From an uncultured Flavobacteriales bacterium (GTDB lineage Bacteria; Bacteroidota; Bacteroidia; CAIKAF01), in contig CAIKAF010000021.1 in the NCBI GenBank assembly GCA_903825395.1, forward strand, positions 25,927-89,926: a DNA stretch of 64,000 nucleotides. The letters run 5' to 3'. Shown here one piece after another: positions 641-54,476 of this stretch. The first letter of the stretch is position 1. The number at the start of each line of letters is the position of its first letter. The notes below the pieces were generated by a model, which had not been told where the DNA came from, searched no databases, and saw only the letters and a program-made list of their open reading frames with translations. A program made the translations under genes and the position numbers.

Positions 641-790
641 TGGCGGCTGCGGGCTTTCTCGGGTAGTACGCATCAGCAATGAGCTGGCCCAGCGGGTTTA
701 CGGTGGCTCCTAAAGTCGCCTCCGCACCTCGCGGGCCAGGTCATTGCTGCTTTGCGCGCTACCCTGATCAATCCCTGCCGCAGGCGGCGT
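641..790. repeat. GC-rich extragenic repeat element, copy 1 (orientation A: starts GGCGGCTGCGGGCTTTC, ends CAATCCCTGCCGCAGGCGGCG)
   Basis: Shares termini and a central box (GGCTCCTAAAGTCGCCTCCGCACC) with copies at 18153, 38163 and 52285, and with reverse-complement copies at 29680, 46566 and 54326. Confidence 0.7.
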
Positions 791-1641
791 TTAAACTTAT
801 GTTGGAACTAAAATCCTACAATGGGTGAATTTTGCTTTTTGGAATGTGGGGTGTGGGGTTAGGATCGGGAATAGGCATTTCTTTAAGACATGGTGTTAGG
901 GTTGAACGTTTTAAGGGGGTAGGGGGATTTTGGGTTTGGGGGGCGTTTAAGGGGTTGGGATTCCCTTTTTTGGGTTTGATGAGATACAATAGCGGTTTCC
1001 TGAAGGCTACGGTTCAGCTTTACCCAAAAAAGGTTGCTGAGCGCCCTTCGGGTCGCCGAATGTTTTTTACCATTTAAAGGAATCCTGAAATTCGATTTAT
1101 CCTCCTTTCTTTCCTCCCCTCCTGAAAAGGATGAATTTGCCAGTTCATCCAGTCTCATTCCCATGCTCCCGCTTCCTGCACCAGCAAAGTTGCCTTTGCA
1201 TGATTCAGAAAGCTTTTCTGAGACTCCCCAAGGCGAACTTGATACCGCTTTTCAGCGTCACCAAATTCCCGTAGTTCACTCCAAAAAGTTCCCTAACTGT
1301 TCTTCGCCACCCCAATACGTGACGAATCTATCCTTTTTAACGTTTCATCGATGAACTTCAAATTTACGCGAGGATTTTCAAAGTTTCAAGGGGAAATGGC
1401 ATTTTGGTGCAATTTTTTATTTGAACAATTAGAAAAAACTAAAATTCTACTCTATGTAAGTCATGCCTTTTAAGGCTTTATAGCTCAAACATAGAATAGA
1501 ACAAAAGTTTTGGCAATGATTAATCCTACCCGAAACCTTTTATTATTTGGCTCCAAATGATAACATAGCTTTCAATCGATAAAAACGGGCGACTTCAAAC
1601 CCAGAATAGGATTTCCCCCACAGTTCATTTAAAAAATGACC

Positions 1642-2373
1642 TTAGAAATTCGGTTTTAACGTGTATTTGCTGTAAAAATCTGTAATGATTTTCACCGCCT
1701 CGTCAGCTGAATCGGCCAATTGAAATAAATTCAAATCCTGTGGGCTTATGTTGCCTTCTGCTTCCAATAAAGATTTTTTAATCCAATCGATTAAGCCAGA
1801 CCAATACTCTGAACCCATTAAAACGATAGGGAATTTACCAATCTTAAAGGTCTGTATCAATGTTAACGATTCAAACAATTCATCCAGGGTTCCAAAGCCT
1901 CCGGGTAATACGATAAAACCTTGTGAGTATTTGACAAACATCACTTTACGGACGAAGAAATAATCAAAATTCAAGTTTTTATCGCTATCAATGTATGGAT
2001 TTGGCTCTTGTTCGAAAGGCAATTCAATGTTTAAACCAACAGATTTACCGCCTCCCTCACGGGCACCTTTATTGGCAGCCTCCATAATTCCAGGGCCGCC
2101 TCCAGAGATGATTCCAAATCCTTGTTGAGTTAATTTATGTGCCACTTCAGAAGCCAAAGCATAGTATTTGTTGTCAGTTTTTGTTCTGGCAGATCCAAAA
2201 ATGGAAACACAAGGGCCAATTTTGCTCATTTTTTCAAAGCCCTCAACAAACTCACCCATTATTTTAAACAAGGCCCAAGAGTCGTTGGTGCGAATTTCTG
2301 TCCAATCTTTTTCCTTAAAGGCATCCTTAATTTTGTCTTCGCCATTCATGGCGTATTCTTCTTTATCAATCAT
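1642..2373 (-). CDS. LOG family protein (TIGR00730 Rossmann-fold nucleotide-binding, cytokinin riboside 5'-monophosphate phosphoribohydrolase-like)
   Basis: Motifs GGGPGIMEA and PGGFGTLDELFE are typical of the LOG/YvdD family. Confidence 0.8.
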   Translation of the reverse strand: MIDKEEYAMNGEDKIKDAFKEKDWTEIRTNDSWALFKIMGEFVEGFEKMSKIGPCVSIFGSARTKTDNKYYALASEVAHKLTQQGFGIISGGGPGIMEAANKGAREGGGKSVGLNIELPFEQEPNPYIDSDKNLNFDYFFVRKVMFVKYSQGFIVLPGGFGTLDELFESLTLIQTFKIGKFPIVLMGSEYWSGLIDWIKKSLLEAEGNISPQDLNLFQLADSADEAVKIITDFYSKYTLKPNF

Positions 2374-2396
2374 ATTACGTTATTAGAGGCGAAAGA

Positions 2397-5213: not shown

Positions 5214-5261
5214 GCTTGAAAAACCCTAATTTGTAGAAAATGTTCAGGGGTTAATTTGGGT

Positions 5262-6365: not shown

Positions 6366-6373
6366 GCTACAAA

Positions 6374-9428: not shown

Positions 9429-9431
9429 GAG

Positions 9432-18041: not shown

Positions 18042-18115
18042 GGTCCGGTAGTTCAGTTGGTTAGAATACATGCCTGTCACGCATGGGGTCGCGGGTTCGA
18101 GTCCCGTCCGGACCG
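18042..18115 (+). tRNA. tRNA-Asp (anticodon GUC)
   Basis: Cloverleaf folded by hand: acceptor GGTCCGG/CCGGACC, anticodon stem CATGC/GCATG with loop CTGTCAC, T-loop TTCGAGT, discriminator G. No encoded CCA. Confidence 0.85.
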
Positions 18116-18123
18116 CTAAAACT

Positions 18124-18149
18124 TCAAGGTTTCCCTTGGAGTTTTTTTT
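18124..18149 (+). terminator. Intrinsic terminator downstream of tRNA-Asp
   Basis: Hairpin CAAGG-tttc-CCTTG followed by T8. Confidence 0.45.
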
Positions 18150-18152
18150 GTT

Positions 18153-18306
18153 TTAGGGCGGGTACGGGCTTTCAGAGCTAGTCCGCGGTTCATGATTCGG
18201 ACTGCAGTGGCTTTAGGGTAGCTCCCAAGGTCGCTCCCTAAAGCGCACGCAGCCCAGAATCATGTCCCTTTCGGGCTAGCATCTTCAATCCCTCCCGCGG
18301 CGGCCC
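18153..18306. repeat. GC-rich extragenic repeat element, copy 2 (orientation A)
   Basis: GGGCGGGTACGGGCTTTCAGAGCTAGTCCGC ... GGTAGCTCCCAAGGTCGCTCC ... TTCAATCCCTCCCGCGGCGGCC. Lies 38 nt downstream of tRNA-Asp. Confidence 0.7.
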
Positions 18307-18697
18307 CACTAGTTTTAACCAAATGAAACAGCATGTGCCTGTTTTCGGCATCCAAATACAAGGGGAATTTTAAGTTTTTCCCTGCATCAAGACTAGATAG
18401 GGTGCTTACCCAATGCCCCTCTAATGATAAAAATGGGGCAACCTTAAGCGCCTTCTCAAACGCCTCTACTTCTTCACTACGTAAATCAATCATCCATAAG
18501 GTCGGACCTGCAGCTATGCCGGTCACAGCATTAAAACTACTCCGAACCTCACGCAATTCCACCCAAAATCCTTTTGAATAACAGGCCAATAAAAACGCCT
18601 CAGCAGCCTCTTTATTGGTGTATTCTCCAATGCAGACCCAGGGGGGCTGCTGAATCCCTAAAAAATGAATTATCAAATTTTTAAAACCCGCCAGCAT
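18260..18697 (-). CDS. Hypothetical protein (145 aa); the last ~15 codons and the stop lie inside repeat copy 2
   Basis: ORF only. The Ala/Gly-rich C-terminus (SGAAAGGIEDASPKGT) is encoded by the repeat element. Confidence 0.35.
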   Translation of the reverse strand: MLAGFKNLIIHFLGIQQPPWVCIGEYTNKEAAEAFLLACYSKGFWVELREVRSSFNAVTGIAAGPTLWMIDLRSEEVEAFEKALKVAPFLSLEGHWVSTLSSLDAGKNLKFPLYLDAENRHMLFHLVKTSGAAAGGIEDASPKGT

Positions 18698-29646: not shown

Positions 29647-29679
29647 GCCGAGGTAAATACCAGCGATTTATGACTTGAG

Positions 29680-29835
29680 TTGGCTTGCGGGCGGGATTGA
29701 ACCGGGTAGCCCGCAAAGCCAAAGGCCCGCTTGGGCGCTAGCCATGCCGGGCGACCTTGGGAGCCACGGCAGGGCAGCAGCCCAAGGGCCTTTGGATGCG
29801 GACTACCGGTGAAAGCCCGAAATCCCGCCCAAAAT
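29680..29835. repeat. GC-rich extragenic repeat element, copy 3 (orientation B, reverse complement of A)
   Basis: GGCTTGCGGGCGGGATTGAACC ... GGCGACCTTGGGAGCCAC ... GGACTACCGGTGAAAGCCCGAAATCCCGCCC. Internal inverted repeat CCAAAGGCCC/GGGCCTTTGG. Confidence 0.75.
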
Positions 29836-35359: not shown

Positions 35360-37867
35360 ATGGAAGCTCGTTTTTCTCCCAGAGTTAAAGATGTAATCAC
35401 CTTTAGTAGAGAAGAAGCCTTGCGCCTTGGCCATGATTATATCGGTACCGAGCACCTCTTGCTAGGTATGATTCGGGAAGGCGAAGGTATGGGGATCAAA
35501 ATCCTTAAATCGCTTGGAGTCCAAATGGATGACTTGAGAAAGGAAATTGAAACCTCAATTCGACCGCATTCAAAAAATACCGTCAATATTGGCAACATCC
35601 CCTTGGTTAAGCAAGCTGAAAAGGCGCTAAAAGTGACCTATCTTGAGGCCAAACTGTTCAACTCGGCCATAATTGGTACCGAGCATCTCCTACTGGCCAT
35701 CTTAAAAGATGAAGACAGCATTGTTACTCGAATTTTAAAACGATATAGGGTGGATTATTCCTCCGTTAAAGACGAAATTGATTTTATGGCAAGCGATAAA
35801 CCAAAGGCAGAAGCCCCAAGAAATGAACCGGAAGAAGAACCCGAAGACATGGGGGGTGGCTTCAGCAAAAAGAACCTGGATCCCAAAAGCAAAACTCCGG
35901 TTCTTGACAATTTTGGCCGAGATTTGTCAAATTTGGCAGAGTCGGGAAAATTGGACCCCATCATTGGCCGAGACAAAGAAATTGAACGGGTATCTCAGAT
36001 CCTATCCCGCAGAAAGAAAAACAACCCCATTTTAATCGGAGAACCAGGAGTTGGAAAATCGGCCATTGCTGAAGGATTGGCCCTTCGAATTTCTCAAAAG
36101 AAGGTGGCGCGAAATCTGTTCACCAAGCGGGTTGTTTCTCTTGACCTGGGTTCATTGGTAGCCGGTACAAAGTACCGCGGCCAATTTGAAGAACGCATGA
36201 AAGCCCTAATGAATGAACTTGAAAAATCACCGGATGTGATTTTATTTATCGACGAAATCCATACCATTATTGGAGCTGGAGGAGCCAGCGGTTCGTTGGA
36301 TGCCTCAAACATGTTTAAACCCGCCTTGGCCAGAGGCGAAATTCAGTGCATCGGAGCCACAACTCTAGATGAATACCGACAATTTATTGAAAAGGATGGG
36401 GCTTTAGACCGCCGTTTTCAAAAGGTGATGGTAGAACCTACCACCGAAGAGGAAACCCTTCAAATTCTTAAGAACATTAAGGACAGGTATGAGGACCACC
36501 ACAATGTAAATTACACTGAAGATGCGCTCAAGGCCTGTGTAAGCTTAACCAGCCGCTACATTACCGACCGGTTCTTGCCAGACAAAGCCATTGATGCCCT
36601 TGATGAGGCTGGAGCCCGTGTCCACATCACCAACATTAAGGTACCCAAAGAAATTGAAGAGATTGAACGGGAGATTGAAGAGGTAAAAGTTGAAAAAACC
36701 CGCGTGGTTAAAAGTCAACGCTATGAAAAGGCCGCCGAACTGCGCGATAAAGAACGGCAGCTTTCCGAGAAACTCGAAAGCGCAAAACGGCGCTGGGAAG
36801 AAGAAAATCGGCAAAACCGCGAAGTGGTTGGCGAAGATGAAGTAGCCCAGGTGGTTGCTATGATGACAGGAATCCCCGTCCAAAAGGTGGCACAAAGCGA
36901 AAGCAATGTGCTCGCGAAAATGTTTGATGTGGTAAAAGGGAAGGTGATTGGCCAAGACGATGCGGTTAAAAAGGTGGTTCGCGCCATTCAACGCAACCGT
37001 GCAGGCCTGAAAGACCCCAATAAACCCATCGGAAGTTTCATTTTCTTAGGCCCAACCGGAGTAGGAAAAACCCAATTGGCTAAGGTTTTGTCTAAAACCC
37101 TGTTTAACAGCGAAGACGCACTGATTCGAATTGACATGTCAGAATACATGGAGAAATTTGCTGTATCGCGTTTAATTGGTGCGCCTCCCGGATATGTCGG
37201 ATATGAAGAAGGTGGACAACTCACCGAAAAGGTGCGCCGAAAACCCTACTCAGTAGTTCTTTTGGACGAAATAGAAAAAGCACACCCCGATGTGTTCAAT
37301 CTTCTGCTGCAAGCCTTAGACGATGGTGTTTTGACCGATTCACTCGGTCGTAAAATTGATTTTAAAAACACCATTATTATCATGACTTCGAACATCGGAT
37401 CCCGAGATTTGAAAGAATTCGGTCAAGGAGTTGGTTTCAAAACTTCAGCACGCGAAAAGCAAGCCGATGAATACTCTGGCGCTGTGATTCAAAATGCACT
37501 GAAAAAGGCCTTCGCTCCAGAGTTTCTGAACCGAATCGACGATGTTATTCTATTCGCTTCCTTGAAGCAAGAAGACATTCACCAAATTATCGATTTGGAG
37601 TTGGCCGCTTTAATACAGCGCATCGAAACCAACGGATATAAAATGAACATTAGTCCCGAGGCCAAAGATTTCATTGCGCAAAAAGGATTTGATCCACACT
37701 ATGGAGCCAGGCCTTTAAAGCGCGCCATTCAAAAATTCATCGAAGATTCGTTGGCCGAAGAAATCATCAGCGGCCGCATTTCTGAGGGAGATACCATTAC
37801 CGTTCAATTGGACGGGGAGGAAATCAAAATCACCAAGGCTAAAATCCGCAAAAAGAAAAATTCATAA
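35360..37867 (+). CDS. clpC: ATP-dependent Clp protease ATP-binding subunit ClpC/ClpA family (class I AAA+)
   Basis: Two Clp_N repeats, two Walker A motifs (GEPGVGKSAIAEGLA, GPTGVGKTQLAKVL), UVR-like coiled coil, ClpB_D2-small domain. Confidence 0.9.
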   Translation: MEARFSPRVKDVITFSREEALRLGHDYIGTEHLLLGMIREGEGMGIKILKSLGVQMDDLRKEIETSIRPHSKNTVNIGNIPLVKQAEKALKVTYLEAKLFNSAIIGTEHLLLAILKDEDSIVTRILKRYRVDYSSVKDEIDFMASDKPKAEAPRNEPEEEPEDMGGGFSKKNLDPKSKTPVLDNFGRDLSNLAESGKLDPIIGRDKEIERVSQILSRRKKNNPILIGEPGVGKSAIAEGLALRISQKKVARNLFTKRVVSLDLGSLVAGTKYRGQFEERMKALMNELEKSPDVILFIDEIHTIIGAGGASGSLDASNMFKPALARGEIQCIGATTLDEYRQFIEKDGALDRRFQKVMVEPTTEEETLQILKNIKDRYEDHHNVNYTEDALKACVSLTSRYITDRFLPDKAIDALDEAGARVHITNIKVPKEIEEIEREIEEVKVEKTRVVKSQRYEKAAELRDKERQLSEKLESAKRRWEEENRQNREVVGEDEVAQVVAMMTGIPVQKVAQSESNVLAKMFDVVKGKVIGQDDAVKKVVRAIQRNRAGLKDPNKPIGSFIFLGPTGVGKTQLAKVLSKTLFNSEDALIRIDMSEYMEKFAVSRLIGAPPGYVGYEEGGQLTEKVRRKPYSVVLLDEIEKAHPDVFNLLLQALDDGVLTDSLGRKIDFKNTIIIMTSNIGSRDLKEFGQGVGFKTSAREKQADEYSGAVIQNALKKAFAPEFLNRIDDVILFASLKQEDIHQIIDLELAALIQRIETNGYKMNISPEAKDFIAQKGFDPHYGARPLKRAIQKFIEDSLAEEIISGRISEGDTITVQLDGEEIKITKAKIRKKKNS

Positions 37868-37905
37868 TCGGATGGGTTTTGTATCTTTAACATCAAATAT
37901 CACGT

Positions 37906-38115
37906 ATGAAACAGCTTAAAAACCTTCTTGCTCTCAGCGTTTTGGTGGTTGCACTCAGCAGCTGCGAAGAAGAAATCTGCATCCATTGTTTTCCAAACGG
38001 AGAAACACATTCCAGTCCGAATGCAGTTGAATTTTGTTCTACAGACGGAAATGCACGAATGGATTTTCAGGTTGAATACATTGATAAATCCTACAATTGC
38101 GTTCAGGCCGAGTAA
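37906..38115 (+). CDS. Small Cys-rich lipoprotein (69 aa), hypothetical
   Basis: Lipobox LSSC; 6 further Cys; followed by a strong intrinsic terminator. Confidence 0.4.
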   Translation: MKQLKNLLALSVLVVALSSCEEEICIHCFPNGETHSSPNAVEFCSTDGNARMDFQVEYIDKSYNCVQAE

Positions 38116-38138
38116 CCTTTGTCCTGTAATCATGAAAT

Positions 38139-38165
38139 AGCCCTTCGTTGAAGGGCTTTTTTTTT
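38139..38165 (+). terminator. Intrinsic terminator
   Basis: Stem AGCCCTT/AAGGGCT (7 bp), loop CGTTG, then T9. Confidence 0.65.
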
Positions 38166-38310
38166 GGGCGGCTGCGGGCTTTCTCAGGTAGTCCGCCGCT
38201 TCCCGGTGGCTGGGGCAGCGGGTTTGCGTGGGCTCCCAAGGTCGCCTCCGCACCACGCGCCCCAGGCACCGGTCTTCCGGCGTTCTACCTTGTTCAATCC
38301 CTGCCGCAAC
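38163..38310. repeat. GC-rich extragenic repeat element, copy 4 (orientation A)
   Basis: TTTGGGCGGCTGCGGGCTTTCTCAGGTAGTCCGCC ... GGCTCCCAAGGTCGCCTCCGCACC ... GTTCAATCCCTGCCGCAACTC. Near-identical termini to copy 1. Confidence 0.75.
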
Positions 38311-38379
38311 TCAAACCCTTAACCCAACACAAAAAAAAGCCCCACTCAATGGCGGGGCTGAAAAAAAATCGTTTGGCAC

Positions 38380-44868: not shown

Positions 44869-46122
44869 ATGGGAGATATTTTCGATAAAATCATCAAAAA
44901 CCCGGGGCCCTTAGGCCAATACGCCAAAGTAGCTCATGGGTATTTTGCCTTTCCAAAGCTGGAGGGCGATATTTCCAACCGCATGAAATTTCGTGGAAAG
45001 GATGTCTTGGTTTGGTCTTTGAACAATTATTTGGGACTAGGAAATCATCCGGAAGTGCGAAAGGCCGATGAAGAAGCTACCCGACAATACGGTTTAGCCT
45101 ATCCGATGGGGGCCAGAATGATGACCGGTGAGAGCGAGCATCATGAACGCTTGGAACAAGAACTGGCGGCCTTTGTAGATAAAAAAGCTGGAATGCTTGT
45201 CAACTATGGTTACCAGGGAGTTATGAGCGTGGTGGATGCCCTACTTGGTCGCCACGACGTAGTGGTTTATGATGCGGAAAGCCACGCCTGTTTGGTGGAC
45301 GGAGTGCGCATGCACCAAGGAAAACGCTTTGTTTATAAGCACAACGACATGGAATCGTTGGAAAAGCAATTGCAGCATGCTGAAAACGTCACCAAAACCA
45401 CCGGTGGAGGCATACTTGTTATAACCGAAGGTGTATTTGGAATGGCGGGAGACCAAGGGGATTTAAAAGGAGTGGTAGAACTTAAAAAGAAATATGGTTT
45501 CCGATTGTTGGTGGACGATGCACATGGGGTTGGAACCATGGGACCAAGATTGGGAGGCACCGGACAAGAGCAAGGAGTACAAGACGATATCGATGTTTAC
45601 TTTGGTACCTTTGCCAAAAGTTTTGCTTTAATTGGAGGCTTCATCGCTGCTGATCCTGAGATAATTGGATTTTTAAAATACAATACCCGCTCGCAGATAT
45701 TTGCCAAATCCTTGCCCATGCCCCTAGTGCTGGGAGCCCAAAAGCGTTTGGAAATGATGCGCGACCGGCCTGAGTTCAAGGAAAAACTTTGGACCATCGT
45801 ACATGCCTTGCAATCAGGATTGAAAAATGCCGGTTTGGATTTAGGCAATACCAATTCTCCCGTTACCCCGGTTTATTTAAAGGGCGGACCTGCAGAAGCT
45901 TCCAATTTGGTGGTTGATTTGCGAGAAAACTACGGGATTTTTTGCTCTGTTGTTATGTATCCGGTTGTTCCTAAAGGAGTTATTATTTTGAGGCTTATTC
46001 CCACAGCGGTTCATACCATGGAAGACGTAAATTACACCGTTAAGGCCTTTTCTGAAATTCAATCTAAGCTTAGTCAGGGATTGTATGACCGGGAAAATTA
46101 TGCCGTAGGATTGGGCGGCTGA
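44869..46122 (+). CDS. Alpha-oxoamine synthase family PLP-dependent acyltransferase (BioF/Kbl/serine palmitoyltransferase-like)
   Basis: 417 aa; fold-type I aminotransferase with PLP-lysine context GTFAKSFALIGGF and substrate-binding His motifs. Could be SPT-like sphingolipid/sulfonolipid head-group condensing enzyme, Kbl or BioF. Confidence 0.8.
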   Translation: MGDIFDKIIKNPGPLGQYAKVAHGYFAFPKLEGDISNRMKFRGKDVLVWSLNNYLGLGNHPEVRKADEEATRQYGLAYPMGARMMTGESEHHERLEQELAAFVDKKAGMLVNYGYQGVMSVVDALLGRHDVVVYDAESHACLVDGVRMHQGKRFVYKHNDMESLEKQLQHAENVTKTTGGGILVITEGVFGMAGDQGDLKGVVELKKKYGFRLLVDDAHGVGTMGPRLGGTGQEQGVQDDIDVYFGTFAKSFALIGGFIAADPEIIGFLKYNTRSQIFAKSLPMPLVLGAQKRLEMMRDRPEFKEKLWTIVHALQSGLKNAGLDLGNTNSPVTPVYLKGGPAEASNLVVDLRENYGIFCSVVMYPVVPKGVIILRLIPTAVHTMEDVNYTVKAFSEIQSKLSQGLYDRENYAVGLGG

Positions 46123-46148
46123 GCCTAAGCGAACCTACTTACAACATG

Positions 46149-46191
46149 CAACTCCGTTTGAAATTTAATTTCAAGCGGAGTTGTTTTTTTT
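46149..46191 (+). terminator. Intrinsic terminator downstream of the alpha-oxoamine synthase gene
   Basis: CAACTCCG ... CGGAGTTG stem with extended inner pairing, followed by T8. Confidence 0.7.
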
Positions 46192-46527
46192 ATTTCCTGA
46201 CTTGTCCACTTTAGTTCAACAAATGCCGCAATGAAGTCGCAAAAAGAACTGAGGGGGATGACGGCAAATTTTCTATTCCAAATCCTACAAGGTATTCCAC
46301 GATAATGTCACCTACAATAATGTCACCCCTACGGGGTTCTGATGTCCTGAGCTCCAATCTGTTCTACTTTGGTCTTATTAATAGTTCTCTAAGACTTCGT
46401 CATGCAATCCATAGAGGCCAGGTGCTCTGAGCTTGTCCACTTTAGTACAACAAATGCCGCAGGACAGGAAATGCAATTCCACGATAACAAATAAGTTATA
46501 AAAAAACCCAAAAAAGGGTGGACAAGT
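46192..46527. repeat. Candidate small non-autonomous insertion (MITE-like) with 11-12 bp terminal inverted repeats TGACTTGTCCAC / GTGGACAAGTCA, flanked by an 18-bp direct duplication CAAGCGGAGTTGTTTTTT
   Basis: Direct repeat at 46174-46191 and 46528-46545; TIRs at 46198-46209 and 46519-46530; internal direct repeats (CTTGTCCACTTTAGTWCAACAAATGCCGCA x2, ATTCCACGATAA x2). Confidence 0.35.
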
Positions 46528-46565
46528 CAAGCGGAGTTGTTTTTTAATTTGACTTAAGTTTTGAG

Positions 46566-46714
46566 GTGGCTTGCGGCAGGGATTGAACACGGTAGCCCGG
46601 ACACGGTGGGTGCCAAAGCCGCGTGGCGCGGAGGCGACCTTGGGAGCCACCGCAAGCCCGCTGGCTTTGCCACCCAGCGGGGAGGACTACCGGTGAAAGC
46701 CCGTTTGCCGCCCA
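46566..46714. repeat. GC-rich extragenic repeat element, copy 5 (orientation B)
   Basis: GGCTTGCGGCAGGGATTGAACACGGTAGCCCGG ... GGCGACCTTGGGAGCCACC ... GGACTACCGGTGAAAGCCCGTTTGCCGCCC. Ends 5 nt from the uvrB stop codon. Confidence 0.75.
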
Positions 46715-46718
46715 ACAC

Positions 46719-48734
46719 CTAAGCCTCTGACTCGGCCGCCTGCAATTCAAACAAAATATCTCTCCATTTGGCCGCTTCCATAAAATCGAGCGATTTGGCT
46801 GCATTTTCCATGTTGCGCCTGACCTCTTCCATTTTCTTTTTGCGCTGAGCGGGAGTCAAAAATGCGGGACTTGGCTCGGCAGCGGCGGTAGATTCACCGG
46901 GCTTTGAATAGGTCTTTGGCGCCTTGCCCGGCGACACCGAAGCCGCCTTCAAAATGCTTTCCTTGCTGGTTTGCAGAGCGGTCGGCCTCATGCCATGCTC
47001 AAGGTTGTAGCGCATTTGCTTTTCCCTGCGGCGATCGGTTTCATCAATGGCCCGTTGCATGCTGTCTGTCATTCGGTCGGCATACATAATTACCTTCCCA
47101 TTGATGTGACGGGCGGCTCGCCCAATGGTTTGAATCAATGAACGCTGATTGCGCAAAAACCCCTCTTTATCGGCATCTAAAATGGCCACCAACGACACTT
47201 CCGGCAAGTCCAACCCTTCTCGAAGTAAATTCACTCCAATCAACACATCAAAAATGCCCAGGCGCAAATCCCGAATGATTTCCACGCGCTCCAAGGTATC
47301 TACTTCCGAGTGGATATAGCGGCAGCGAATGTGGAGTTTACTGAAGAACTTTTCCAGCTCTTCGGCCATGCGTTTGGTCAAGGTGGTGACCAAAATCCGT
47401 TCATCTTTATCGGCCCGAAGATGAATTTCCTCCATCAAATCATCAATTTGATGTTTGGTAGGCCTGACTTCAATTTCTGGATCAAGCAAACCGGTTGGAC
47501 GGATGATTTGTTCTACAACAAAACCTTCCGAGCGCTCTAATTCATAATCGCCCGGTGTTGCGCTGACGTAAATGGCTTGGTGCGTCAGGGCCTCGAACTC
47601 CTCGAATTTCAATGGGCGGTTGTCCAAGGCTGAGGGCAATCGGAAGCCGTATTCTACAAGGTTCAGTTTGCGTTTGCGGTCGCCGTTGTACATGGCTCGG
47701 ATTTGAGGAATGGTGACGTGGCTTTCATCCACCATCAGCAACCAATCGTCGGGGAAATAATCCAACAGACAGAAAGGGCGTGTTCCTGCATTTCTGCCAT
47801 CGAAATAGCGGGAATAGTTTTCAATTCCTGAGCAATATCCCAGCTCTCTGATCATTTCTAAATCGTACTCTACCCGCTGTTGCAGTCGTTTGGCTTCCAG
47901 GGGTTTTCCATGCTGTTGAAAAAATTCAATTTGAGCCGTTAAATCATCGGCAATGATGGATGAGGCCGCTTTTATCCGCTCGCGCGTGGTCACAAACAAA
48001 TTGGCCGGACTAACCACAAACTTTTCTATGGAATCCAATTGCTGCCCTGTAATGGGATCTATCAAGCTCATCTCATCGATGGAATCGCCCCAGAACTGAA
48101 TGCGCAGGGCCTGCTCTGACTGCGCCAAATACACATCTACCGTATCTCCCTTCACCCTAAACGTACCGCGCTTAAAATCCTCTTCTGTACGGGCATACAG
48201 CGCATCCACTAATTTGAACAGAACGGCGTTCCGACTTGTTTTTAAGCCCACATGCAAGCGGACCGTTTGCGCATGAAAATCTTCAGGATTTCCCATGCCG
48301 TAGATGCAAGAAACAGAAGAAACCACCAACACATCGCGGCGACCGCTCAGCAAGGAGGAGGTGGCTGAAATCCTCAGTTTTTCAATTTCATCGTTGATGC
48401 TTAAATCCTTTTCTATGTAGGTATCGCTGCTGGGAATGTATGCCTCTGGCTGGTAGTAATCGTAGTATGAAACAAAGTATTCCACGGCATTTTCCGGGAA
48501 AAAGTGTTTAAACTCACCATACAGCTGAGCCGCCAATGTTTTGTTGTGGCTTAAAACCAGCGTGGGCCTGTTGACTTCATGAATCACATTGGCCATGGTG
48601 AAGGTTTTACCGGTTCCGGTAGCCCCCAACAAGGTTAAATTTGGCAGCTCTTTATTAAGGCCATCTACCAATTCCCGGATTGCAGAAGGCTGATCACCCG
48701 TAGGCTTATAAGGTTCAAAGAGTTTAAACTTCAT
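46719..48734 (-). CDS. uvrB: Excinuclease ABC subunit B
   Basis: Start set at MKFKLFEPYKPTGDQPSAI (canonical UvrB N-terminus). Helicase motifs GATGTGKT, DESH; UvrB/UvrC-interaction C-terminus. Confidence 0.95.
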   Translation of the reverse strand: MKFKLFEPYKPTGDQPSAIRELVDGLNKELPNLTLLGATGTGKTFTMANVIHEVNRPTLVLSHNKTLAAQLYGEFKHFFPENAVEYFVSYYDYYQPEAYIPSSDTYIEKDLSINDEIEKLRISATSSLLSGRRDVLVVSSVSCIYGMGNPEDFHAQTVRLHVGLKTSRNAVLFKLVDALYARTEEDFKRGTFRVKGDTVDVYLAQSEQALRIQFWGDSIDEMSLIDPITGQQLDSIEKFVVSPANLFVTTRERIKAASSIIADDLTAQIEFFQQHGKPLEAKRLQQRVEYDLEMIRELGYCSGIENYSRYFDGRNAGTRPFCLLDYFPDDWLLMVDESHVTIPQIRAMYNGDRKRKLNLVEYGFRLPSALDNRPLKFEEFEALTHQAIYVSATPGDYELERSEGFVVEQIIRPTGLLDPEIEVRPTKHQIDDLMEEIHLRADKDERILVTTLTKRMAEELEKFFSKLHIRCRYIHSEVDTLERVEIIRDLRLGIFDVLIGVNLLREGLDLPEVSLVAILDADKEGFLRNQRSLIQTIGRAARHINGKVIMYADRMTDSMQRAIDETDRRREKQMRYNLEHGMRPTALQTSKESILKAASVSPGKAPKTYSKPGESTAAAEPSPAFLTPAQRKKKMEEVRRNMENAAKSLDFMEAAKWRDILFELQAAESEA

Positions 48735-48741: not shown

Positions 48742-49593
48742 TTATTTACCAGAGGCCTCAATCTGCCGCTGACTTCGGGTGTACAACCAAAGGCCCAATA
48801 GTACGGACAGAACAACCAAAGACATACCTAGGTAACGCTGGAACGCGGATATTGGTTGAATTTTCTCCCTCCTAAATTGAACGGCCTCCTGCAATTGCGG
48901 ATTTATCTTCAATGCTTCATTGAACCATTCGATTGCAATATCTTCTTCTCCAATAAGATATGAATATTCACCCATATCCATAAACATCCAAGAAATCCAG
49001 ATGGAATCGGATTTATACACCCAAAGGCGCTGGTTTAACCAATTGAACAATTCGGTCCTTTTCGATTTCCAAAGCTCCAGTTGTTTGGGGTTGGTTTGGG
49101 CATTCCGGACCTGTTCCAAACTAAATTGGCTATACACTCCATTTACCTTTTCCGGGCGGCCAAGGGGATTTACCTTGGTGCGCAGGTAGCGCAGTTCTTG
49201 AGCCATGGAATTGTGGCCCAAGTTGGCGTTGCGTCGCTGTGCATTTTCCATGGATAGCAGCGCCTTTTTGGTATTTCCTTGAAGGGAGTACGCCGTGCTT
49301 AATAGGAACAAGCCTTGGGCTGTTCCTCCGTCTTTAATTTGCCAATCTTCAAGCGTGGCAATGGCTTCGTGGGTATAACCCGACTGAATTTCAAGCGCCA
49401 GGAAGGTCAAAATGGCATCCACATCTTTATGCTGAAGAATCTGCTCCAATTGTTTTTCCTTCAGTTTTGCATATCCGGTGGTATCTAAATTCCAAGACAA
49501 AGCAGATGGCAATGGTTGGGTTTGAGATTGGCAGGGCTCAATCCATGAGCTCCATGTCAGCACCACAAGGGAAAACATCCAAAGGTTCTTCAT
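48742..49593 (-). CDS. TPR-repeat protein with signal peptide and C-terminal transmembrane anchor
   Basis: 283 aa; TPR-like repeats; C-terminal hydrophobic segment LGMSLVVLSVLLGLWLYT. Confidence 0.5.
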   Translation of the reverse strand: MKNLWMFSLVVLTWSSWIEPCQSQTQPLPSALSWNLDTTGYAKLKEKQLEQILQHKDVDAILTFLALEIQSGYTHEAIATLEDWQIKDGGTAQGLFLLSTAYSLQGNTKKALLSMENAQRRNANLGHNSMAQELRYLRTKVNPLGRPEKVNGVYSQFSLEQVRNAQTNPKQLELWKSKRTELFNWLNQRLWVYKSDSIWISWMFMDMGEYSYLIGEEDIAIEWFNEALKINPQLQEAVQFRREKIQPISAFQRYLGMSLVVLSVLLGLWLYTRSQRQIEASGK

Positions 49594-49719
49594 GCTGCAA
49601 AGGTAGGGGAAAAATAGTGGCCTAAATTCACTTGTTTTTGGTTAGAAAGCCGAGTCGGCAGCTAAATTTTAGTAACCTTAACACCTAGAAGCAATAAAAC
49701 CGAATCGATTCCGCTACCT

Positions 49720-50055
49720 TTGCATAAAAATATAATTATGGCACTAGAAATAACCGACAGCAACTTTGAGGAGCTGGTTAAAAATTCAGACAAACCCGTA
49801 CTAATTGACTTTTGGGCAGAATGGTGTGGTCCTTGCAAAATGATTGGACCCGTGGTTGAGGAATTGGCTAAAGAGTTTGAAGGGAAAGCCGTTATCGGAA
49901 AAGTAGATGTAGATTCCAATCCAATTGTGGCTTCCAGTCTTGGCATACGGGCTATCCCTACTCTATTGTTTTTTAAAAATGGGGAAATGGTAGATCGCAG
50001 TGTTGGAGTAGTTCCTAAAACGGAGCTTGCCAATAAATTGAACTCCATGTTATAA
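49720..50055 (+). CDS. trxA: Thioredoxin
   Basis: WAEWCGPCK active site; 111 aa. Confidence 0.9.
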   Translation: MHKNIIMALEITDSNFEELVKNSDKPVLIDFWAEWCGPCKMIGPVVEELAKEFEGKAVIGKVDVDSNPIVASSLGIRAIPTLLFFKNGEMVDRSVGVVPKTELANKLNSML

Positions 50056-50074
50056 CGCATTTTTTTTGGTTTTG

Positions 50075-50100
50075 GCCGGCCTTAGTGCCGGCTTTTTTTT
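50075..50100 (+). terminator. Intrinsic terminator downstream of trxA
   Basis: GCCGGC-cttagt-GCCGGC followed by T8. Confidence 0.65.
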
Positions 50101-50118
50101 GCCCATTTCCAACGGAGT

Positions 50119-52230
50119 TTACCACCAGCGGCAGCGAATTCCTAGTCCGATTCTTCGTGGTGCTCCGGGCCCATACACATAATTCGGGTCGCGATGTATG
50201 CCTTGCCCATAATCGGTTTGCAGCGCATTGGTCAAGTTGTGTACGCTCAACTCCCCTTCCACTGAAAAACGTTCGGCCAACAGCCATTGTTTTCTGGCGG
50301 TCAGTGCCAATTCCAGCAACTCAGGACTGAGGACAACTGTTGGCCATTCATGCGCATGGTTTGGCATGCGCAGTACATCCATGGGACCCCAGAAACGCAT
50401 ATACCCTGCGACAGACCAGCGATTTTGAGAACCCGGAAACCATTCCGCTCGGACTAAACCGGACCAATGCGGAACCTGCAGCAATCGGTCATGCCAGCCG
50501 GGAATTCCCCATTCTGATTCATCCCAAAGGGATTGGGGTTCATCTAAGGATTGAACATTGGCCGTTCCCTGAGCTTGAAGTTTCCATTGAGTGCCGCTCA
50601 ATTCAAAGTTCATACTGGGCGACACCATCCATAAACCACTGCCGTTGGTTTTCTCTTTTAAAAAATACAGTTCTTCGGCGCTTGTATTTTCCCAAATAAA
50701 AATGCCCGACAACCGCTGAACGGTACAGCGGAGTTGCAATTCCGTGTGCAGGCCCTTGCCCAATTTTCTTTTCCATCTTGCCCAAACCAAGGCCTGGTGG
50801 CCCCGTTCTGGCTTTAAATCGCTTTGCCAAACCACAAAAATGGGCTGAGCTCCCAACATACTTAAATGAATGTCTTCTTCAAAAATTTGTGGTGCCCGCT
50901 GGGTCATTCTATAGCTAACACCCATCTGCCACCGTTCACCAGGCTTCCATTCCAGACCTATTGCGGGAAGCAATGCCGGGAAAAGGGTATTGGAAGTCCA
51001 AGACAGGGAATCTAAGCCGAGCCTTCCTTGGAAAAAATTGGCTAAGCCTTGAATTCCCGCGACCAATTCTAGAATCGGTTTCGGCTTCCACCGCAGCTGA
51101 ATTCCTGCCGAGCCATTCCAAGCCCATTGCTGGAGTTTCCGTTGAAAGCCGGGTGTTGCATCCCTCAGTACATCTCGACCCAATGAGGCATTGAAATTCA
51201 GTTGAAGCCTTGCATTCAATTTCAGTTCAGATTTCCAACCGCCCAGCAGCCAAAATTGATGGCTATCTCCGGCATACTTCAGGGCTTGCCCGGTGGTATC
51301 CGGGCCGGCCACTTCCAATCCATTGCCTCCATAATAACTTTGACGGTTCAGCCCGTTCATAAGCAGAAATGTGGATTGGGAAAAATGAGGGCGAACGGTG
51401 TGGTTCCAAACCAGGTCAGCCGATACCCATTGGTGGCCTATGGTTTCAGCAATCCGGCGTTCCACCGTCGGCAAATGCATATCGCTGCCTCCGCTGCGTG
51501 CATCTACAAGACCTCGAACATTGCATTCCAAGGTATGGTTTGAATTCAGAGCTTGAATCACCTGAAAACCAAAAGTGTTTAATTGAAGTTTAGGGCTTTC
51601 TGAAAACCCGTCGGGATGCACATCCCAGGCCGTTCGATCGCGCCGGCTAAGCCAAATTGAAGCCTGGGTTTTCTTTCCAACCAGAGGTTGGTACAAAGTA
51701 ATCTGCCTATCGCCGGCTCCACCTTCCCAAAGGCTTTGGCGCACAGAAAATACGGCCGTTTGAAGCGCCGGCATATCGGTTTGCAGCTGAATGAGTCCGG
51801 CGGGGAAATTACCGGCCCACTCTTGATGGGCAAGGCCGCTGCGGTCTAGAGAAAGAGAAGACAGAAGTTCAGATGGTAATAATTCAAGGCCATACACCAA
51901 AGCCAATGAGGGCAGAAAGGGCCGACCATTTAACAGCAGACCGGTGTAGGGGCCATTTAGTCCGTCGGTTTGCAATCGACTAAATCCACAGCTTTGACAT
52001 GCATCGGCAACGAACACGCCATTGAGCAGGTGCAGCAGTTCCTTGGCTGAAGGCTGCTGCAAATTCCTTAGCTCGGCAGCTGTCAATTCAATGCCATCAA
52101 GTGCTGCAGAGCCGTATTTCGTATTGGACTGAAAATCAAATGATTTTAAATGAATGGACCGGTTAATACTGTCGGATTTCTGAGCAAGAATGGTGTGTGA
52201 GAGCAATAAAAAAACAAAGACAATCTTCAT
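50119..52230 (-). CDS. TonB-dependent receptor-like outer-membrane beta-barrel protein (compositionally atypical, GC-rich)
   Basis: Signal peptide, plug-like N-terminal region, C-terminal ...IRCRWW aromatic terminus. About 52-60% GC against a roughly 40-45% background; rich in Leu/Gln/Trp/Arg. Confidence 0.65.
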   Translation of the reverse strand: MKIVFVFLLLSHTILAQKSDSINRSIHLKSFDFQSNTKYGSAALDGIELTAAELRNLQQPSAKELLHLLNGVFVADACQSCGFSRLQTDGLNGPYTGLLLNGRPFLPSLALVYGLELLPSELLSSLSLDRSGLAHQEWAGNFPAGLIQLQTDMPALQTAVFSVRQSLWEGGAGDRQITLYQPLVGKKTQASIWLSRRDRTAWDVHPDGFSESPKLQLNTFGFQVIQALNSNHTLECNVRGLVDARSGGSDMHLPTVERRIAETIGHQWVSADLVWNHTVRPHFSQSTFLLMNGLNRQSYYGGNGLEVAGPDTTGQALKYAGDSHQFWLLGGWKSELKLNARLQLNFNASLGRDVLRDATPGFQRKLQQWAWNGSAGIQLRWKPKPILELVAGIQGLANFFQGRLGLDSLSWTSNTLFPALLPAIGLEWKPGERWQMGVSYRMTQRAPQIFEEDIHLSMLGAQPIFVVWQSDLKPERGHQALVWARWKRKLGKGLHTELQLRCTVQRLSGIFIWENTSAEELYFLKEKTNGSGLWMVSPSMNFELSGTQWKLQAQGTANVQSLDEPQSLWDESEWGIPGWHDRLLQVPHWSGLVRAEWFPGSQNRWSVAGYMRFWGPMDVLRMPNHAHEWPTVVLSPELLELALTARKQWLLAERFSVEGELSVHNLTNALQTDYGQGIHRDPNYVYGPGAPRRIGLGIRCRWW

Positions 52231-52284
52231 TTTTTTTAGTCAAATCTAAATATTTTTCTTGAAACGACTAATAATTATTTTTTG

Positions 52285-52438
52285 TTGGGGCGCAATTCCG
52301 GCTGTCATAGGTAGCGTCAATGTACTTGCTGTGGCCGAAAGGGGCTGCGGTGGCTTCCTCTGGTCGCCTCCTCGCCCGTTCGGCCAAACAGCAAGTACGA
52401 TTGCCGGCTACCTTATTCCATCCGGGCGCCGGGCCGCG
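52285..52438. repeat. GC-rich extragenic repeat element, copy 7 (orientation A, diverged)
   Basis: TTGGGGCGCAATTCCGGCTGTCATAGGTAGCGTC ... GGCTTCCTCTGGTCGCCTCCTCGCCC ... with internal inverted repeat GTACTTGCTGTGGCC/GGCCAAACAGCAAGTAC. Matches the consensus with more substitutions. Confidence 0.5.
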
Positions 52439-52705
52439 TAAAAATTAAAGGCCGAAGAAAAAATCCCTTTTGCCCCTGTTGCGATACTTAAATTTTAAAC
52501 TGTGAATTTTTTCTATTCTAGTTCATTTCAGAGATCTGTTCATTAGCGGATTTTATTTGGACAATTCATGCCATAAAAATCAACCACAACATGAACGAGT
52601 AGGAATAAAGGCCGGGCTTAACTTAGCCCAAAAAATAATGACGCTATAAAATACAATGCCCCAGCGATTGCAGCTGGGGCTTTTTTTGTTGGGTTTAGAT
52701 ATGCA

Positions 52706-54199
52706 TCAATACGTAAAAACAACCAATCCATGGCCTTGACGTTGGCCATTTTGCATACTTGCATTGCTAACCCCGCCAGTGTATCCAGATCCACCGCCTC
52801 CGCCAACGGCATAGGAACTTCCGCCTCCGTACCAACCTCCGCCACCGCCGCCAACGTGGTATGAACCCTGGCTGCTGCCCCCCTGACCAAATGAGCCTGG
52901 ATTTCCACCACCGCAACCTGCGGCGCCGCCGGCACTTTGGGTCCCACCTTGTCCTGGGCAGGCTCCATTCCCCGGACCGTTGATACCGGGACTTCCAGCA
53001 TTTCCGCCACCTGCGCCCCCGAATCCATGATCTGGCCCACCGGAGTTTCCTCCGCCTCCTCCTCCGGCAACAATGACTCTATTGTTGAGGGTTTGTCCAT
53101 TGGTACGGACGTCTGAGGCTCCGCCTCCACCTCCGCCATATTGGCCATCGCCACCACCACCATTCCAGCCGCCGGGTCCGTTGGTGGCGGAAGCCGGCTT
53201 TTCGCCAACATAAATGTAAAGTACTTGTCCCGGAGTAACAGACAGATTTCCTTTTGCATATCCGCCATAGCCCCCGTCGTCAGCAAAAGTACCGCCATCG
53301 CCGGGTCCACCTTGTGCGCCATAGCATTCAATTTGAACTGTATTTACGCAGGCTGGAACGGTCCACGACTGAACGTTTCCTGTATAATTAAACGTTGCGG
53401 TATTGCCACCGAAGGGTGGGCAATTGTTGACCGTAATCTGAAGGCTATCTGATGTGGTGCAACCTGCCGAGCTGGTAACCGATAGAAACACCCAGTAGTT
53501 TCCGGCCTGAGTCCATTGTACAACAGGATTTTGAGCTGTAGAGGTGGCTGGATTTCCTGAGCTAAACGACCAGGAATACGAAGCGCCTTGTCCGGTAAAG
53601 GTGGGCGAAAAAGTGGTATTTAAATTAATAGAGGGCGTTGCGGGAGAAAGTGAAAATGTGGAGCTAGGGACTGCAACAGAAATGGAAACAGATCGAGGGG
53701 GAGATTGTCCGCAGGCATTTTGAGAAGAGACTTGTAGTGTACCACCTGTATTACCGAATGTAATTAAAACACTATCCGTATTTGTTCCTGAAACAAGGCT
53801 AGCTCCGCCGGGCAGGGTCCAAACGTAGCCGGTTGCACCTGCAACCGGTAAAATTGAATATCCTACAGAATCGGCGCCAGGGCAATTGAGTAAGGGTCCT
53901 GTAATGGCTGTTGGCTGTGCTGGGGGTGCGGTGCATTCGCAGGCGACGATACCCCAACCATTTGAAAAAAACGCTTCAATGCAATGAGAGGTTAAATTGT
54001 AGATTTCAAGTCCGATGGCAGGAGATTGAATGCTATCTCGTGCTCCGGTGGTTAATCGGGGCAACAACAACCCTTTAGAAGAAGATTTTAATTCCAATAC
54101 AGCACTTGAATGTGGGGCTACAGAATCACCAATCAAAACCCCTTGTCCAATCAAAGCCAAGTTGAAAAAAGAAATAAAAAGAATGGATGCAACTTTCAT
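52706..54199 (-). CDS. Secreted protein with Cys-containing Ig/PKD-like N-terminal region and an extremely glycine-rich C-terminal domain (poly-Gly punctuated by Tyr/Trp)
   Basis: Signal peptide. C-terminal ~200 aa are about 45% Gly (GGGGGNSGGPDHGFGGAGGGNAG..., YHVGGGGGGWYGGGSSYAVGGGGGSGYTGG). The GC-rich DNA also yields a spurious overlapping Ala/Pro-rich ORF in another frame. Confidence 0.6.
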   Translation of the reverse strand: MKVASILFISFFNLALIGQGVLIGDSVAPHSSAVLELKSSSKGLLLPRLTTGARDSIQSPAIGLEIYNLTSHCIEAFFSNGWGIVACECTAPPAQPTAITGPLLNCPGADSVGYSILPVAGATGYVWTLPGGASLVSGTNTDSVLITFGNTGGTLQVSSQNACGQSPPRSVSISVAVPSSTFSLSPATPSINLNTTFSPTFTGQGASYSWSFSSGNPATSTAQNPVVQWTQAGNYWVFLSVTSSAGCTTSDSLQITVNNCPPFGGNTATFNYTGNVQSWTVPACVNTVQIECYGAQGGPGDGGTFADDGGYGGYAKGNLSVTPGQVLYIYVGEKPASATNGPGGWNGGGGDGQYGGGGGGASDVRTNGQTLNNRVIVAGGGGGGNSGGPDHGFGGAGGGNAGSPGINGPGNGACPGQGGTQSAGGAAGCGGGNPGSFGQGGSSQGSYHVGGGGGGWYGGGSSYAVGGGGGSGYTGGVSNASMQNGQRQGHGLVVFTY

Positions 54200-54325
54200 A
54201 GAACTAAGGTATTGAAATAAAAAAAACCAATGGAATAAGAAATGATTTCGCCCACAGAAAATCCGGAGAGCGGTTCATTGTAAAGCTGCTGAATGGCGAT
54301 TTATGTAGAGGCTATACGTTTTGAG

Positions 54326-54476
54326 GGGGCTTGCGGCAGGGATTGAAGAGGCTTGCCCGTAACGGAGGCCTGCAGAGCTGCGCGAGGCGGCAGGAGCGAC
54401 CTTGGGAGCTACCTGCCGGCCGCTGCAGCTGTGCAGGGCAACGGCGGACAAGCCCTGAAAGCCCGTCTGCCGCCTT
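54326..54476. repeat. GC-rich extragenic repeat element, copy 6 (orientation B)
   Basis: GGCTTGCGGCAGGGATTGAAGAGGCTTGCCCG ... AGCGACCTTGGGAGCTACC ... GGACAAGCCCTGAAAGCCCGTCTGCCGCC. Lies immediately 3' of tRNA-Cys on the minus strand. Confidence 0.75.

Follow-up and report, generated by a model that had tools for sequence, protein, structure and literature searches.

A 64-kb stretch of contig CAIKAF010000021.1 from an uncultured Flavobacteriales bacterium (hereafter the window, meaning the whole stretch analyzed) carries seven copies of an interspersed, GC-rich element of ~145–165 nt that folds into one long hairpin. Together with at least 106 further copies in related metagenome-assembled genomes (MAGs), they constitute a genuine, well-defined family for which we found no earlier description. 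We favor, with moderate confidence, a reading of this family as a non-autonomous, interspersed hairpin DNA element, REPIN/PATE-like and specific to one lineage, that is mobilized in trans.

A family of repeats in the window and in related genomes

We aligned the seven copies (c1–c7) over ~165 columns (mean column identity 68–70%), derived a covariance model (R1) from them and searched the whole window with it, leaving filters off. This returned exactly seven matches (117–168 bits, E ≤ 3e-31), while the runners-up (≤16 bits) were the antisense strands of the same copies. Alignment and model thus place all seven elements where an initial annotation of this DNA had located them, and in the same orientations. 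Core coordinates in the following list run from GGGCGGC to GCCGC:

c1, 641–781, plus strand: core (TGGCGGC to GCCGC); R1 match 638–803 including the GC-rich 3' tail, 164 bits
c2, 18156–18298, plus strand: core; R1 match 18153–18320, 146 bits
c3, 38166–38307, plus strand: core; R1 match 38163–38324, 150 bits
c4, 52287–52430, plus strand: core, divergent subtype; R1 match 52285–52452, 117 bits
c5, 29687–29830, minus strand: core; R1 match 29665–29833, 153 bits
c6, 46573–46713, minus strand: core, nearest to the family consensus; R1 match 46551–46716, 167.5 bits
c7, 54333–54475, minus strand: core; R1 match 54311–54478, 163.5 bits

The copies occupy ~1.8% of the window and have a GC content of 60–69%, compared with 39–50% per 2 kb for the window, which bears out the GC richness first reported for them (55–65% in a genome of ~40–45%). 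Three blocks had been described as conserved in every copy; the blocks are real, although c1 and above all c4 carry variants of them, c4 having the apical sequence GGCTTCCTCTGGTCGCC together with TTCCATCCGGGCGCC and the terminal helix GGGCGC/GCGCC.

A covariance-model scan of the window and related genomes, as had been suggested, extended the family well beyond this contig. Scanning one genome per species with the pattern GCTCCCAAGGTCGC-N38–60-TTCAATCC yielded at least 78 loci; all but one of the matches listed come from three freshwater Bacteroidetes/Flavobacteriales MAGs (casp15-mb.160, K_DeepCast_35m_m2_130 and ErkenSummer bin-6618). In ~0.57 Mb of loci from these MAGs, R1 recognizes at least 106 further copies, and these 106 plus the seven of the window make up the 113-copy set used below. 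One match in Thiocapsa (L063) and eight obtained in a metagenome scan for a subfamily of the L081 type are chance matches, none of which R1 recognizes. The window is 93–97% identical to the casp15 MAG and syntenic with the K_DeepCast MAG at ~72–75% identity, and pairwise identity between copies has a median of 59%. The density in the window and loci, roughly one copy per 5–9 kb, extrapolates to a few hundred copies per genome.

The initial annotation had recognized no named family, and our searches agree. In the window, Rfam 15 gave no match to the element at the gathering score or at E ≤ 10, nor did c6 searched alone against Rfam 15 with lax filters, and tRNA, tmRNA and every Rfam family were accordingly rejected as its identity. 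Nothing similar was present in IMG/VR, plasmid and phage collections, so a phage or plasmid origin was likewise rejected, and a literature search found no description of the family.

A conserved rod-like fold

The consensus fold of the 113 copies is a rod of 47 pairs. The core unit (GGGCGGC to GCCGC) spans ~140–145 nt; behind it lies a GC-rich tail of 8 nt with weak conservation. At the base, the conserved helix P1 (GCGGC/GCCGC) is followed by P2 (GGG-(C)-UU / AA-(U)-CCC), a 2x2 UC/UC internal loop and P3 (GGUAGUCCGC/GCGGGCUACC, with a fixed U-G). Beyond P3 come two variable, fast-evolving and compensated helices and then P6, and the tip of the rod is a conserved apical stem-loop (GGCUCCCAAGGUCGCC, GGC-U-CC-CAA-GG-UC-GCC).

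This fold is exceptionally well supported. Standard pairs fill 92.8% of cells across the 113 copies, against 72.0% in column shuffles and at most 51% when partners are slid, and covariation scores 0.458, compared with 0.114 after shuffling and no more than 0.13 for slid partners. Double changes occur at 40 of the 47 pairs, and all 18 pairs of the middle helices show them. On c1–c7 alone, RNAalifold proposes 41 pairs, 25 with compensatory changes, and the folding energy of single copies is about −82 kcal/mol (z-scores −4.3 to −6.2). The compensated stems first noticed by eye are therefore substantiated, as is the co-varying terminal pairing: column 10/187 of the terminal helix is CG in 67 copies, GC in 21 and UA in 17. 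Compensatory stems alone, however, do not point to an RNA.

Three further structures were considered and rejected. The 3' block GUUCAAUCC fits the tRNA T-loop consensus, but the flanks supply no T-stem and the block pairs with CGGGCUUUCA instead, so a tRNA-like T-arm is not present. Pairing of the T-rich 5' flank with the A/C-rich 3' flank into an extra outer helix is no stronger for matched than for mismatched flanks (−7.25 vs −7.36 kcal/mol), and a pseudoknot or direct repeat involving the 3' tail gave no signal.

Unit ends and the preceding T-tract

Close paralogs define sharp ends for the unit. In a trio from one genome (L038a, L038b and L037 of CAILUT, ~85% identical), similarity begins at about GGGCGGC and stops at GCCGC; between c5 and its 88% identical paralog L042 it begins at the same point, passes GCCGC by ~20 nt into the 3' tail and then ends. 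Close paralogs have unrelated flanks. Downstream of GCCGC, a GC-rich 8-mer (RGSCSNCC) shows loose conservation and gives way to G-poor sequence, and the 5' flank is T-rich and C-poor over ~8–12 nt. The T-tract itself varies in length (3–9 nt); c6 lacks a T-run, and 37 of 94 copies have no uninterrupted run of at least three T within 4 nt of the G-run.

A co-oriented terminator lies upstream of 17 of 97 copies and in 11 of these ends no more than 13 nt from the element, so that ~11% of copies begin directly after a terminator T-tract. Genes for tRNA-Asp, tRNA-Cys, tRNA-Ala and tRNA-Met are each followed by a terminator and then by a co-oriented element. The corresponding features of the window are as follows:

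18118–18155, plus strand: flank of c2, the tRNA-Asp terminator hairpin and then the T-tract (TTTTTTTTGTTTTA), abutting the 5' end of the element
38130–38165, plus strand: flank of c3, a terminator hairpin (AGCCCTTCGTTGAAGGGC) plus T9, from the alignment with L079
54476–54515, minus strand: flank of c7, the tRNA-Cys terminator hairpin and then the T-tract (CTTTTTTGTTTTAA)
18042–18116, plus strand: tRNA-Asp (GTC), context, outside the element
54516–54587, minus strand: tRNA-Cys (GCA), context, outside the element

These two tRNAs are the only standard RNA genes in the window, and c2 and c7 lie just downstream of them. The site of c3 is the most informative. The element begins exactly after T9 (GGGCTTTTTTTTT, then GGGCGGC), and the related contig L079 keeps the hairpin and T9 of the small gene downstream of clpB but has unrelated sequence in place of c3. 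Because T9 is kept where the element is missing, the T-tract is a flank that is older than the element.

There is no sign of target-site duplication, since direct repeats between the 5' flank and the 3' tail do not exceed the level in unmatched copies, and no copy-specific pairing between the flanks was found. Where two copies are adjacent they are tail-to-tail (6 of 6 pairs, with no head-to-head or tandem pair), as expected from insertion after the T-tracts of two convergent genes. The genes next to the copies are housekeeping genes, and no protein family recurs among them.

Polarity relative to GC skew

The carrier genomes are MAG contigs, and we used GC skew as a proxy for replication direction. 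The strand bearing the T-tract and GGGCGGC is the locally C-rich strand in 65 copies and the other strand in 19 (p = 5e-7), and where skew is strong the counts are 37 and 5. When skew was regressed on coding-strand balance the slope was ~0 and the intercept −0.037 ± 0.006, so the polarity is independent of gene orientation. With GC skew as the proxy, the T-tract strand would usually be the lagging strand. Polarity of this sort characterizes processes that exploit single-stranded DNA at the replication fork (PMC3333891).

Within the window, top-strand skew is negative (mainly over 1–24 kb) and turns positive after ~54 kb, with the switch at ~52000–54000. This switch is flanked by c4 on the plus strand and c7 on the minus strand, both of which obey the polarity rule. 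A replication origin near 53 kb was considered and rejected, as there is no cluster of DnaA boxes.

Taken with the flanks, the polarity also bears on a SINE-like origin, in which RNA of the reverse strand, ending in an A-run, would be reverse-transcribed from the 3'-OH of a T-tract on the nascent lagging strand and the T-tract would be left at the 5' end of the cDNA strand. Such retroposition would account for a T-tract of variable length (3–9 nt) exactly at one end, for the lack of a target duplication and for the location of the T-tract strand on the C-rich, presumed lagging, strand. At the c3 site, however, T9 is older than the element and is equally long in L079, which lacks c3; this nearly excludes such an origin. 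Moreover, c6 has no T-run, we saw no reverse transcriptase and no promoter-bearing master copy, and there is no known precedent in bacteria; we regard retroposition as highly improbable.

Gain, loss and persistence of copies

Sites have been gained or lost between lineages. Four relatives whose UvrB proteins are 89–90% identical to that of the window lack c6, and their gap between uvrB and the aminotransferase gene is 49–68 nt; L079 is without c3 (and c6) yet keeps c4 and c7. On a contig with a 75% identical UvrB, a divergent member of the family lies 10 nt after uvrB and has CC/GG in place of UU/AA in P2, and a contig with a 73% identical UvrB has no copy in 22 kb. Among the MAGs, in ~20 syntenic comparisons, the element was present in both partners in all but two cases (L009:3641–3808 and L025:2914–3081, each absent from the syntenic partner).

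Other sites are old. The c2 orthologs in L015 and L025 share 99% and 73% identity with it, respectively, and have intact blocks; an ortholog of c5 in L056 is 93% identical. Orthologs of c4 with the same subtype features occur in L057 and at L079 2187–2352, and those of c7 in L057 and at L079 446–610. In a genome that is ~73% identical, c2, c4 and c7 thus occupy the same sites with their blocks and copy-specific variants 100% intact, while the variable stems are completely different and still paired. The family is old, slowly proliferating and confined to one clade. Blocks that stay intact in such old copies would need continuing selection, recognition or gene conversion at each locus, and they would suit a role in the host or as RNA equally well.

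Copies also coincide with changes in gene order, which suggests that the repeats mediate rearrangements. Between L070 and L077, a block with an M16 peptidase gene has changed both orientation and position with respect to the KMO-Sir2 genes, with breakpoints at elements. A 1.86-kb segment between c4 and c7 (52453–54310), with a gene for a protein with PKD and ALK_LTK glycine-rich domains (52706–54199, minus strand), is absent in L057 (K_DeepCast MAG), where the two elements lie 20 nt apart, tail-to-tail. A composite transposon bounded by c4 and c7 was rejected, because L079 has the arrangement of the window and the difference is therefore a simple indel.

A separate length difference adjoins c6. 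The sequence between c6 and the aminotransferase gene (44869–46122) covers 46123–46550, in an intergenic region of 596 nt in the window against 49–68 nt in the four relatives. It contains an insert of ~345 nt bounded by the direct repeat AAAAAACAACTCCGCTTGA near 46535 and 46190, with internal direct repeats GCGGCATTTGTTGnACTAAAGTGGACAAG; the second copy of AAAAAACAACTCCGCTTGA (near 46190) is part of the aminotransferase terminator. This insert looks like a second, unrelated inserted element.

Evidence for a DNA element over an RNA gene

The initial annotation had left open whether the repeats were a non-coding RNA or a MITE family. The evidence clearly leans to a hairpin-DNA element over a stand-alone RNA gene; the DNA side of that proposal is favored, and the RNA side is disfavored by promoter, terminator, orientation and strand data alike. 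A small RNA (sRNA) gene has its own promoter and terminator, and neither was found. Only 5 of 93 copies are preceded by the Bacteroidetes −7 box TAnnTTTG, which rejects a Bacteroidetes promoter inside the T-tract; a search for conserved upstream motifs gave none beyond the T-rich, C-poor tract, and a terminator-like site follows 2 of 97 copies. The element does not act as an intrinsic terminator either, as the T-run precedes the hairpin and no U-tract follows it on either strand. Orientation relative to genes is near random, with the upstream gene on the same strand in 63 cases and on the opposite strand in 40, and 282 kb of nearby coding sequence on the same strand against 262 kb on the opposite strand.

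The two strands fold about equally (−82.2 vs −82.0 kcal/mol with RNA parameters; DNA parameters favor the reverse strand by 2.4 kcal/mol), and we detected no thermodynamic asymmetry that would identify the folded strand. Genuine RNA families accept G-U much more readily than A-C. In this family, however, G-U and A-C occur at similar frequencies in the variable stems (about 1% each), and nearly all wobbles fall at two fixed positions (U-G in 87 of 113 copies and G-U in 53). Pyrimidine-pyrimidine mismatches exceed purine-purine mismatches on the T-tract strand; read on the reverse strand, the conserved pyrimidine mismatches would become an A-G mismatch and a tandem GA/GA. With this residual asymmetry, the folded strand cannot be named with confidence.

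A structured RNA family could nonetheless act in cis within read-through transcripts, as a 3'-UTR stabilizer, processing site or protein-binding site, or be processed into sRNAs; its loops would bind protein or RNA, and copies arising by duplication would each be kept by selection. The very strong covariation and conserved loops would suit such a family, as would orthologs that keep their blocks across ~27% nucleotide divergence with rewritten stems, the two fixed wobbles, the mismatch excess on one strand and the match of the 3' block to the T-loop consensus. Copies lie at a median of 19 nt from the stop codon of a co-oriented upstream gene, so many of them must be co-transcribed. Against this stand the missing promoters and terminators, the near-random gene orientation, the ~11% of copies directly after a terminator (c3 is located between two), the lack of G-U enrichment in the variable stems, the equal folding of the strands, a polarity that tracks GC skew and not genes, and the restriction to one lineage with hundreds of copies (by extrapolation) at sites gained and lost. 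We consider a structured RNA unlikely.

The same polarity could instead reflect a host-selected DNA structure that serves the replication fork or chromosome organization, such as a polar hairpin or a cruciform to which a host protein binds; analogs would be gyrase and IHF at BIMEs, single-strand-origin or primosome hairpins and the RRS elements of E. coli. Independence of gene orientation, equal folding of the strands, long persistence of sites with conserved blocks and fairly regular spacing between operons (about one per 5–9 kb) are all consistent with this. A precedent is provided by chromosomal elements, structured and rich in GC, that are reported to influence the passage of the replisome (PMC10592627). 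The family is limited to a few species-level lineages, however, and the relative with a 73% identical UvrB has none in 22 kb; so narrow a range makes an essential chromosome function unlikely. Copies are also gained and lost between close relatives, and no binding protein is known. A host structural element therefore seems to us distinctly unlikely.

Comparison with known repeat and transposon systems

Strict membership in the REP, MITE and attC classes fails, and no named family fits. REPs carry an unpaired GT[AG]G foot on a unit of 20–40 nt. Here, the GTAG in P3 (GGTAGTCCGC) pairs with CTACC and covaries (column 33/169 is AU in 81 copies and UA in 16, and a GTTG/CAAC subfamily exists), and the unit is ~150 nt long. 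Nor was a RAYT found in the 0.8 Mb examined. The earlier proposal of a hairpin recognized by a REP-type transposase is, in that form, unsupported.

The resemblance to REPINs is closer. Like the REPIN/RAYT systems of Pseudomonas and E. coli, the element is extragenic, has hundreds of copies and no adjacent transposase, and persists for long at fixed sites. It is an inverted doublet that forms a symmetrical hairpin whose two arms are conserved and whose variable spacer shows compensatory changes, as in REPINs (PMC3116915), and its GTAG...CTAC recalls the 'double foot' of RAYT-associated repeats (PMC6006769). It differs in its length (~145–165 nt), conserved apical stem-loop and two extra outer helices, in the paired and covarying GTAG, in the T-tract abutting the 5' end and in the absence of a RAYT from the DNA examined. 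Typical REPIN populations are also much more alike than copies with a median identity of 59%.

These observations frame the possibility of a bona fide REP/REPIN with a cognate RAYT (TnpA_REP), for example of subclass 2.4 (Bacteroidetes/Cyanobacteria) or 2.6. Both subclasses are represented in Bacteroidetes, where their structures are of the 'double-foot' GTAG...CTAC type or atypical (PMC6006769), P3 (G-GTAG-TCCGC ... GCGGG-CTAC-C) can be read as a double foot, the conserved arms and compensated spacer match REPINs, and the related contig L083 has a Y1_Tnp gene flanked by GTAG-type repeats. On the other hand, the GTAG covaries to GTTG/CAAC and is not a fixed, unpaired guide tetranucleotide, the unit is 4–7 times the length of a REP with a conserved apical loop and extra outer helices, and the L083 repeats belong to a different family. 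On balance, a true REPIN is improbable.

In the window, a GTAG-tagged REP-like sequence (CCCGTAGGGGTGACATTATTGTAGGTGACATT) occurs once, at ~46290–46340, and is also found in L022. On L083, a 1.4-Mb contig of a related Flavobacteriales genome, units nearly identical to it (CCCGTAGGGGCGACATTTT) flank the Y1_Tnp (PF01797) gene at L083:12050–13010, downstream of uvrB. R1 does not match these repeats; with the gene they appear to form a REP/RAYT system of the classical kind, separate from the family described here.

With IS200/IS605 PATEs and with IS608 and ISDra2, the family shares recognition of a hairpin in place of classical terminal inverted repeats. As in IS200/IS605, there is no target duplication, a T-rich target lies on one side and orientation appears to be biased relative to replication (PMC3333891). 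PATEs have two distinct subterminal hairpins and a fixed tetra- or pentanucleotide target, whereas this element has one long hairpin and a loose, variable T-tract. It also differs from IS608 in that its polarity would be opposite if the T-tract strand were the top strand, and no TnpA or TnpB was found. MITEs have target-site duplications, which are lacking here, and terminal inverted repeats in common with a transposase-encoding parent insertion sequence; here the whole unit is one inverted repeat.

ERIC/IRU, YPAL and Correia/NEMIS elements are likewise imperfect palindromes of ~100–170 bp that lie between genes near gene ends, have many copies per genome and fold as RNA if co-transcribed. Some ERIC copies are orthologous between species, as in this family. 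The sequences are unrelated, however, the phylum is another, and there is no TA or other target duplication; copies here are much more divergent, with block-wise conservation, and to our knowledge no GC-skew polarity has been reported for families of this type. The attC sites share a structure that is better conserved than the sequence, a single-stranded fold and a strand placement that matters relative to replication. The element has no GTTRRRY/RYYYAAC ends (the R and L boxes), no co-oriented cassette arrays and no integrase, and its copies are in mixed orientations, scattered among housekeeping genes.

Proposed mode of mobilization

In the reading we favor, a structure- and strand-specific enzyme encoded in trans would recognize conserved loops and mismatches in the folded strand when the DNA is single-stranded, for example at the replication fork. 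The unit would then be copied or moved, without target duplication, to an intergenic position directly 3' of a T-tract, often the tract of an intrinsic terminator or a run just after a stop codon, and copies would thereafter persist for very long. The most plausible enzyme would be an HUH/Y1 nuclease of the IS200/RAYT superfamily; Y1 transposases act on single-stranded DNA hairpins at the lagging-strand template (PMC3333891).

Several observations weigh against this proposal. No transposase, RAYT or other candidate enzyme was found in 0.8 Mb of this lineage. The search for an IS200/IS605 (RAYT-like) transposase that the initial annotation had recommended was made with the HUH...Y motif and with tblastn using three Y1 proteins, and it found none in 0.64–0.8 Mb of carrier DNA. 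In the same DNA we found no split, half or autonomous version of the element and no parent insertion sequence, and conservation of the apical loop and several internal loops goes beyond what known Y1 enzymes recognize. We found no filled/empty pair with identical flanks: intergenic alignments at 70–80% identity were uninformative, and no empty c6 allele turned up in a metagenome scan. Were the T-tract strand the active 'top' strand, the polarity would have the reverse sign from the IS608 model, since that model puts the top strand on the G-rich lagging-strand template and the T-tract strand here is C-rich; survivorship is a possible explanation, in that copies with the active strand on the lagging-strand template might be excised more often. 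The fixed wobbles and the pyrimidine-pyrimidine excess are mildly RNA-like. Lastly, old copies with intact blocks look selected, and inert transposon relics should decay, which keeps the RNA and host DNA-structural alternatives alive.

In a broader reading, quite unlikely in our judgment, the copies would not be selfish relics but a new class of polar, structured single-strand elements maintained by the host, with hundreds of paralogs each under purifying selection. They could be DNA hairpins at the fork (priming, gap-forming or protein-loading) or an unusually large protein-binding RNA family, and a dedicated partner protein would co-evolve with the conserved loops.

Genomic neighborhood and other observations in the window

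Neighbors of the seven copies include genes for ClpB-like, UvrB, TonB-dependent receptor, subtilase and response regulator proteins and tRNAs; these are ordinary genes, and the earlier statement that no transposase lies adjacent is upheld. Copy c1 sits 12 nt 3' of a DUF5686-family open reading frame (ORF; 45–629), and 5 nt separate the uvrB stop codon from the start of the c6 core. The description of all copies as intergenic is nearly right, except that c2 shares its last 39–60 nt with the 3' end of an unannotated ORF of 145 amino acids (18260–18697, minus strand) without a Pfam match, whose last 13–20 codons come from the reverse strand of c2. The C terminus of UvrB reads ...AAESEA* in the window and ...AAQ* in relatives without c6 (window 46716–46735). 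Insertion of the element may have remodeled the C termini of both proteins. Open frames traverse every copy, so gene callers will mis-annotate the elements.

Three other features were noted. A conserved ORF of ~70 amino acids (37905–38118, plus strand) lies downstream of the clpB-like gene, begins MKQLKNLLALSVLVVALSSCEEE and has its own terminator; L079 has a gene call at the corresponding position, and the product looks like a lipoprotein. A fluoride riboswitch model matches 37751–37810 (minus strand) at 23.4 bits (gathering score 34, E = 0.037), probably a false positive given its antisense location inside the ClpB-like ORF. Sub-threshold matches to RyhB, SorX and Bp1_781 (E 0.4–2.8) at 49991–50100 (plus strand), in a 58-nt gap between minus-strand genes, most likely reflect just a hairpin.

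Discussion

The family accounts for ~2% of the DNA that we examined from uncultured freshwater Flavobacteriales, a widespread group. It combines the traits of a mobile element (distribution, sharp ends and turnover) with those of a functional nucleic acid (block conservation and covariation), which are normally seen apart, and keeps orthologous sites across deep divergence. With rearrangement breakpoints and an indel at elements, it probably influences how genomes of this lineage are structured. Should there be a cognate nuclease, the family would extend the 'genomic symbionts' of the REPIN/RAYT type to Bacteroidetes, with a much more elaborate substrate; if there is no such nuclease, the replication-related polarity would point to a previously undescribed role at the DNA level.

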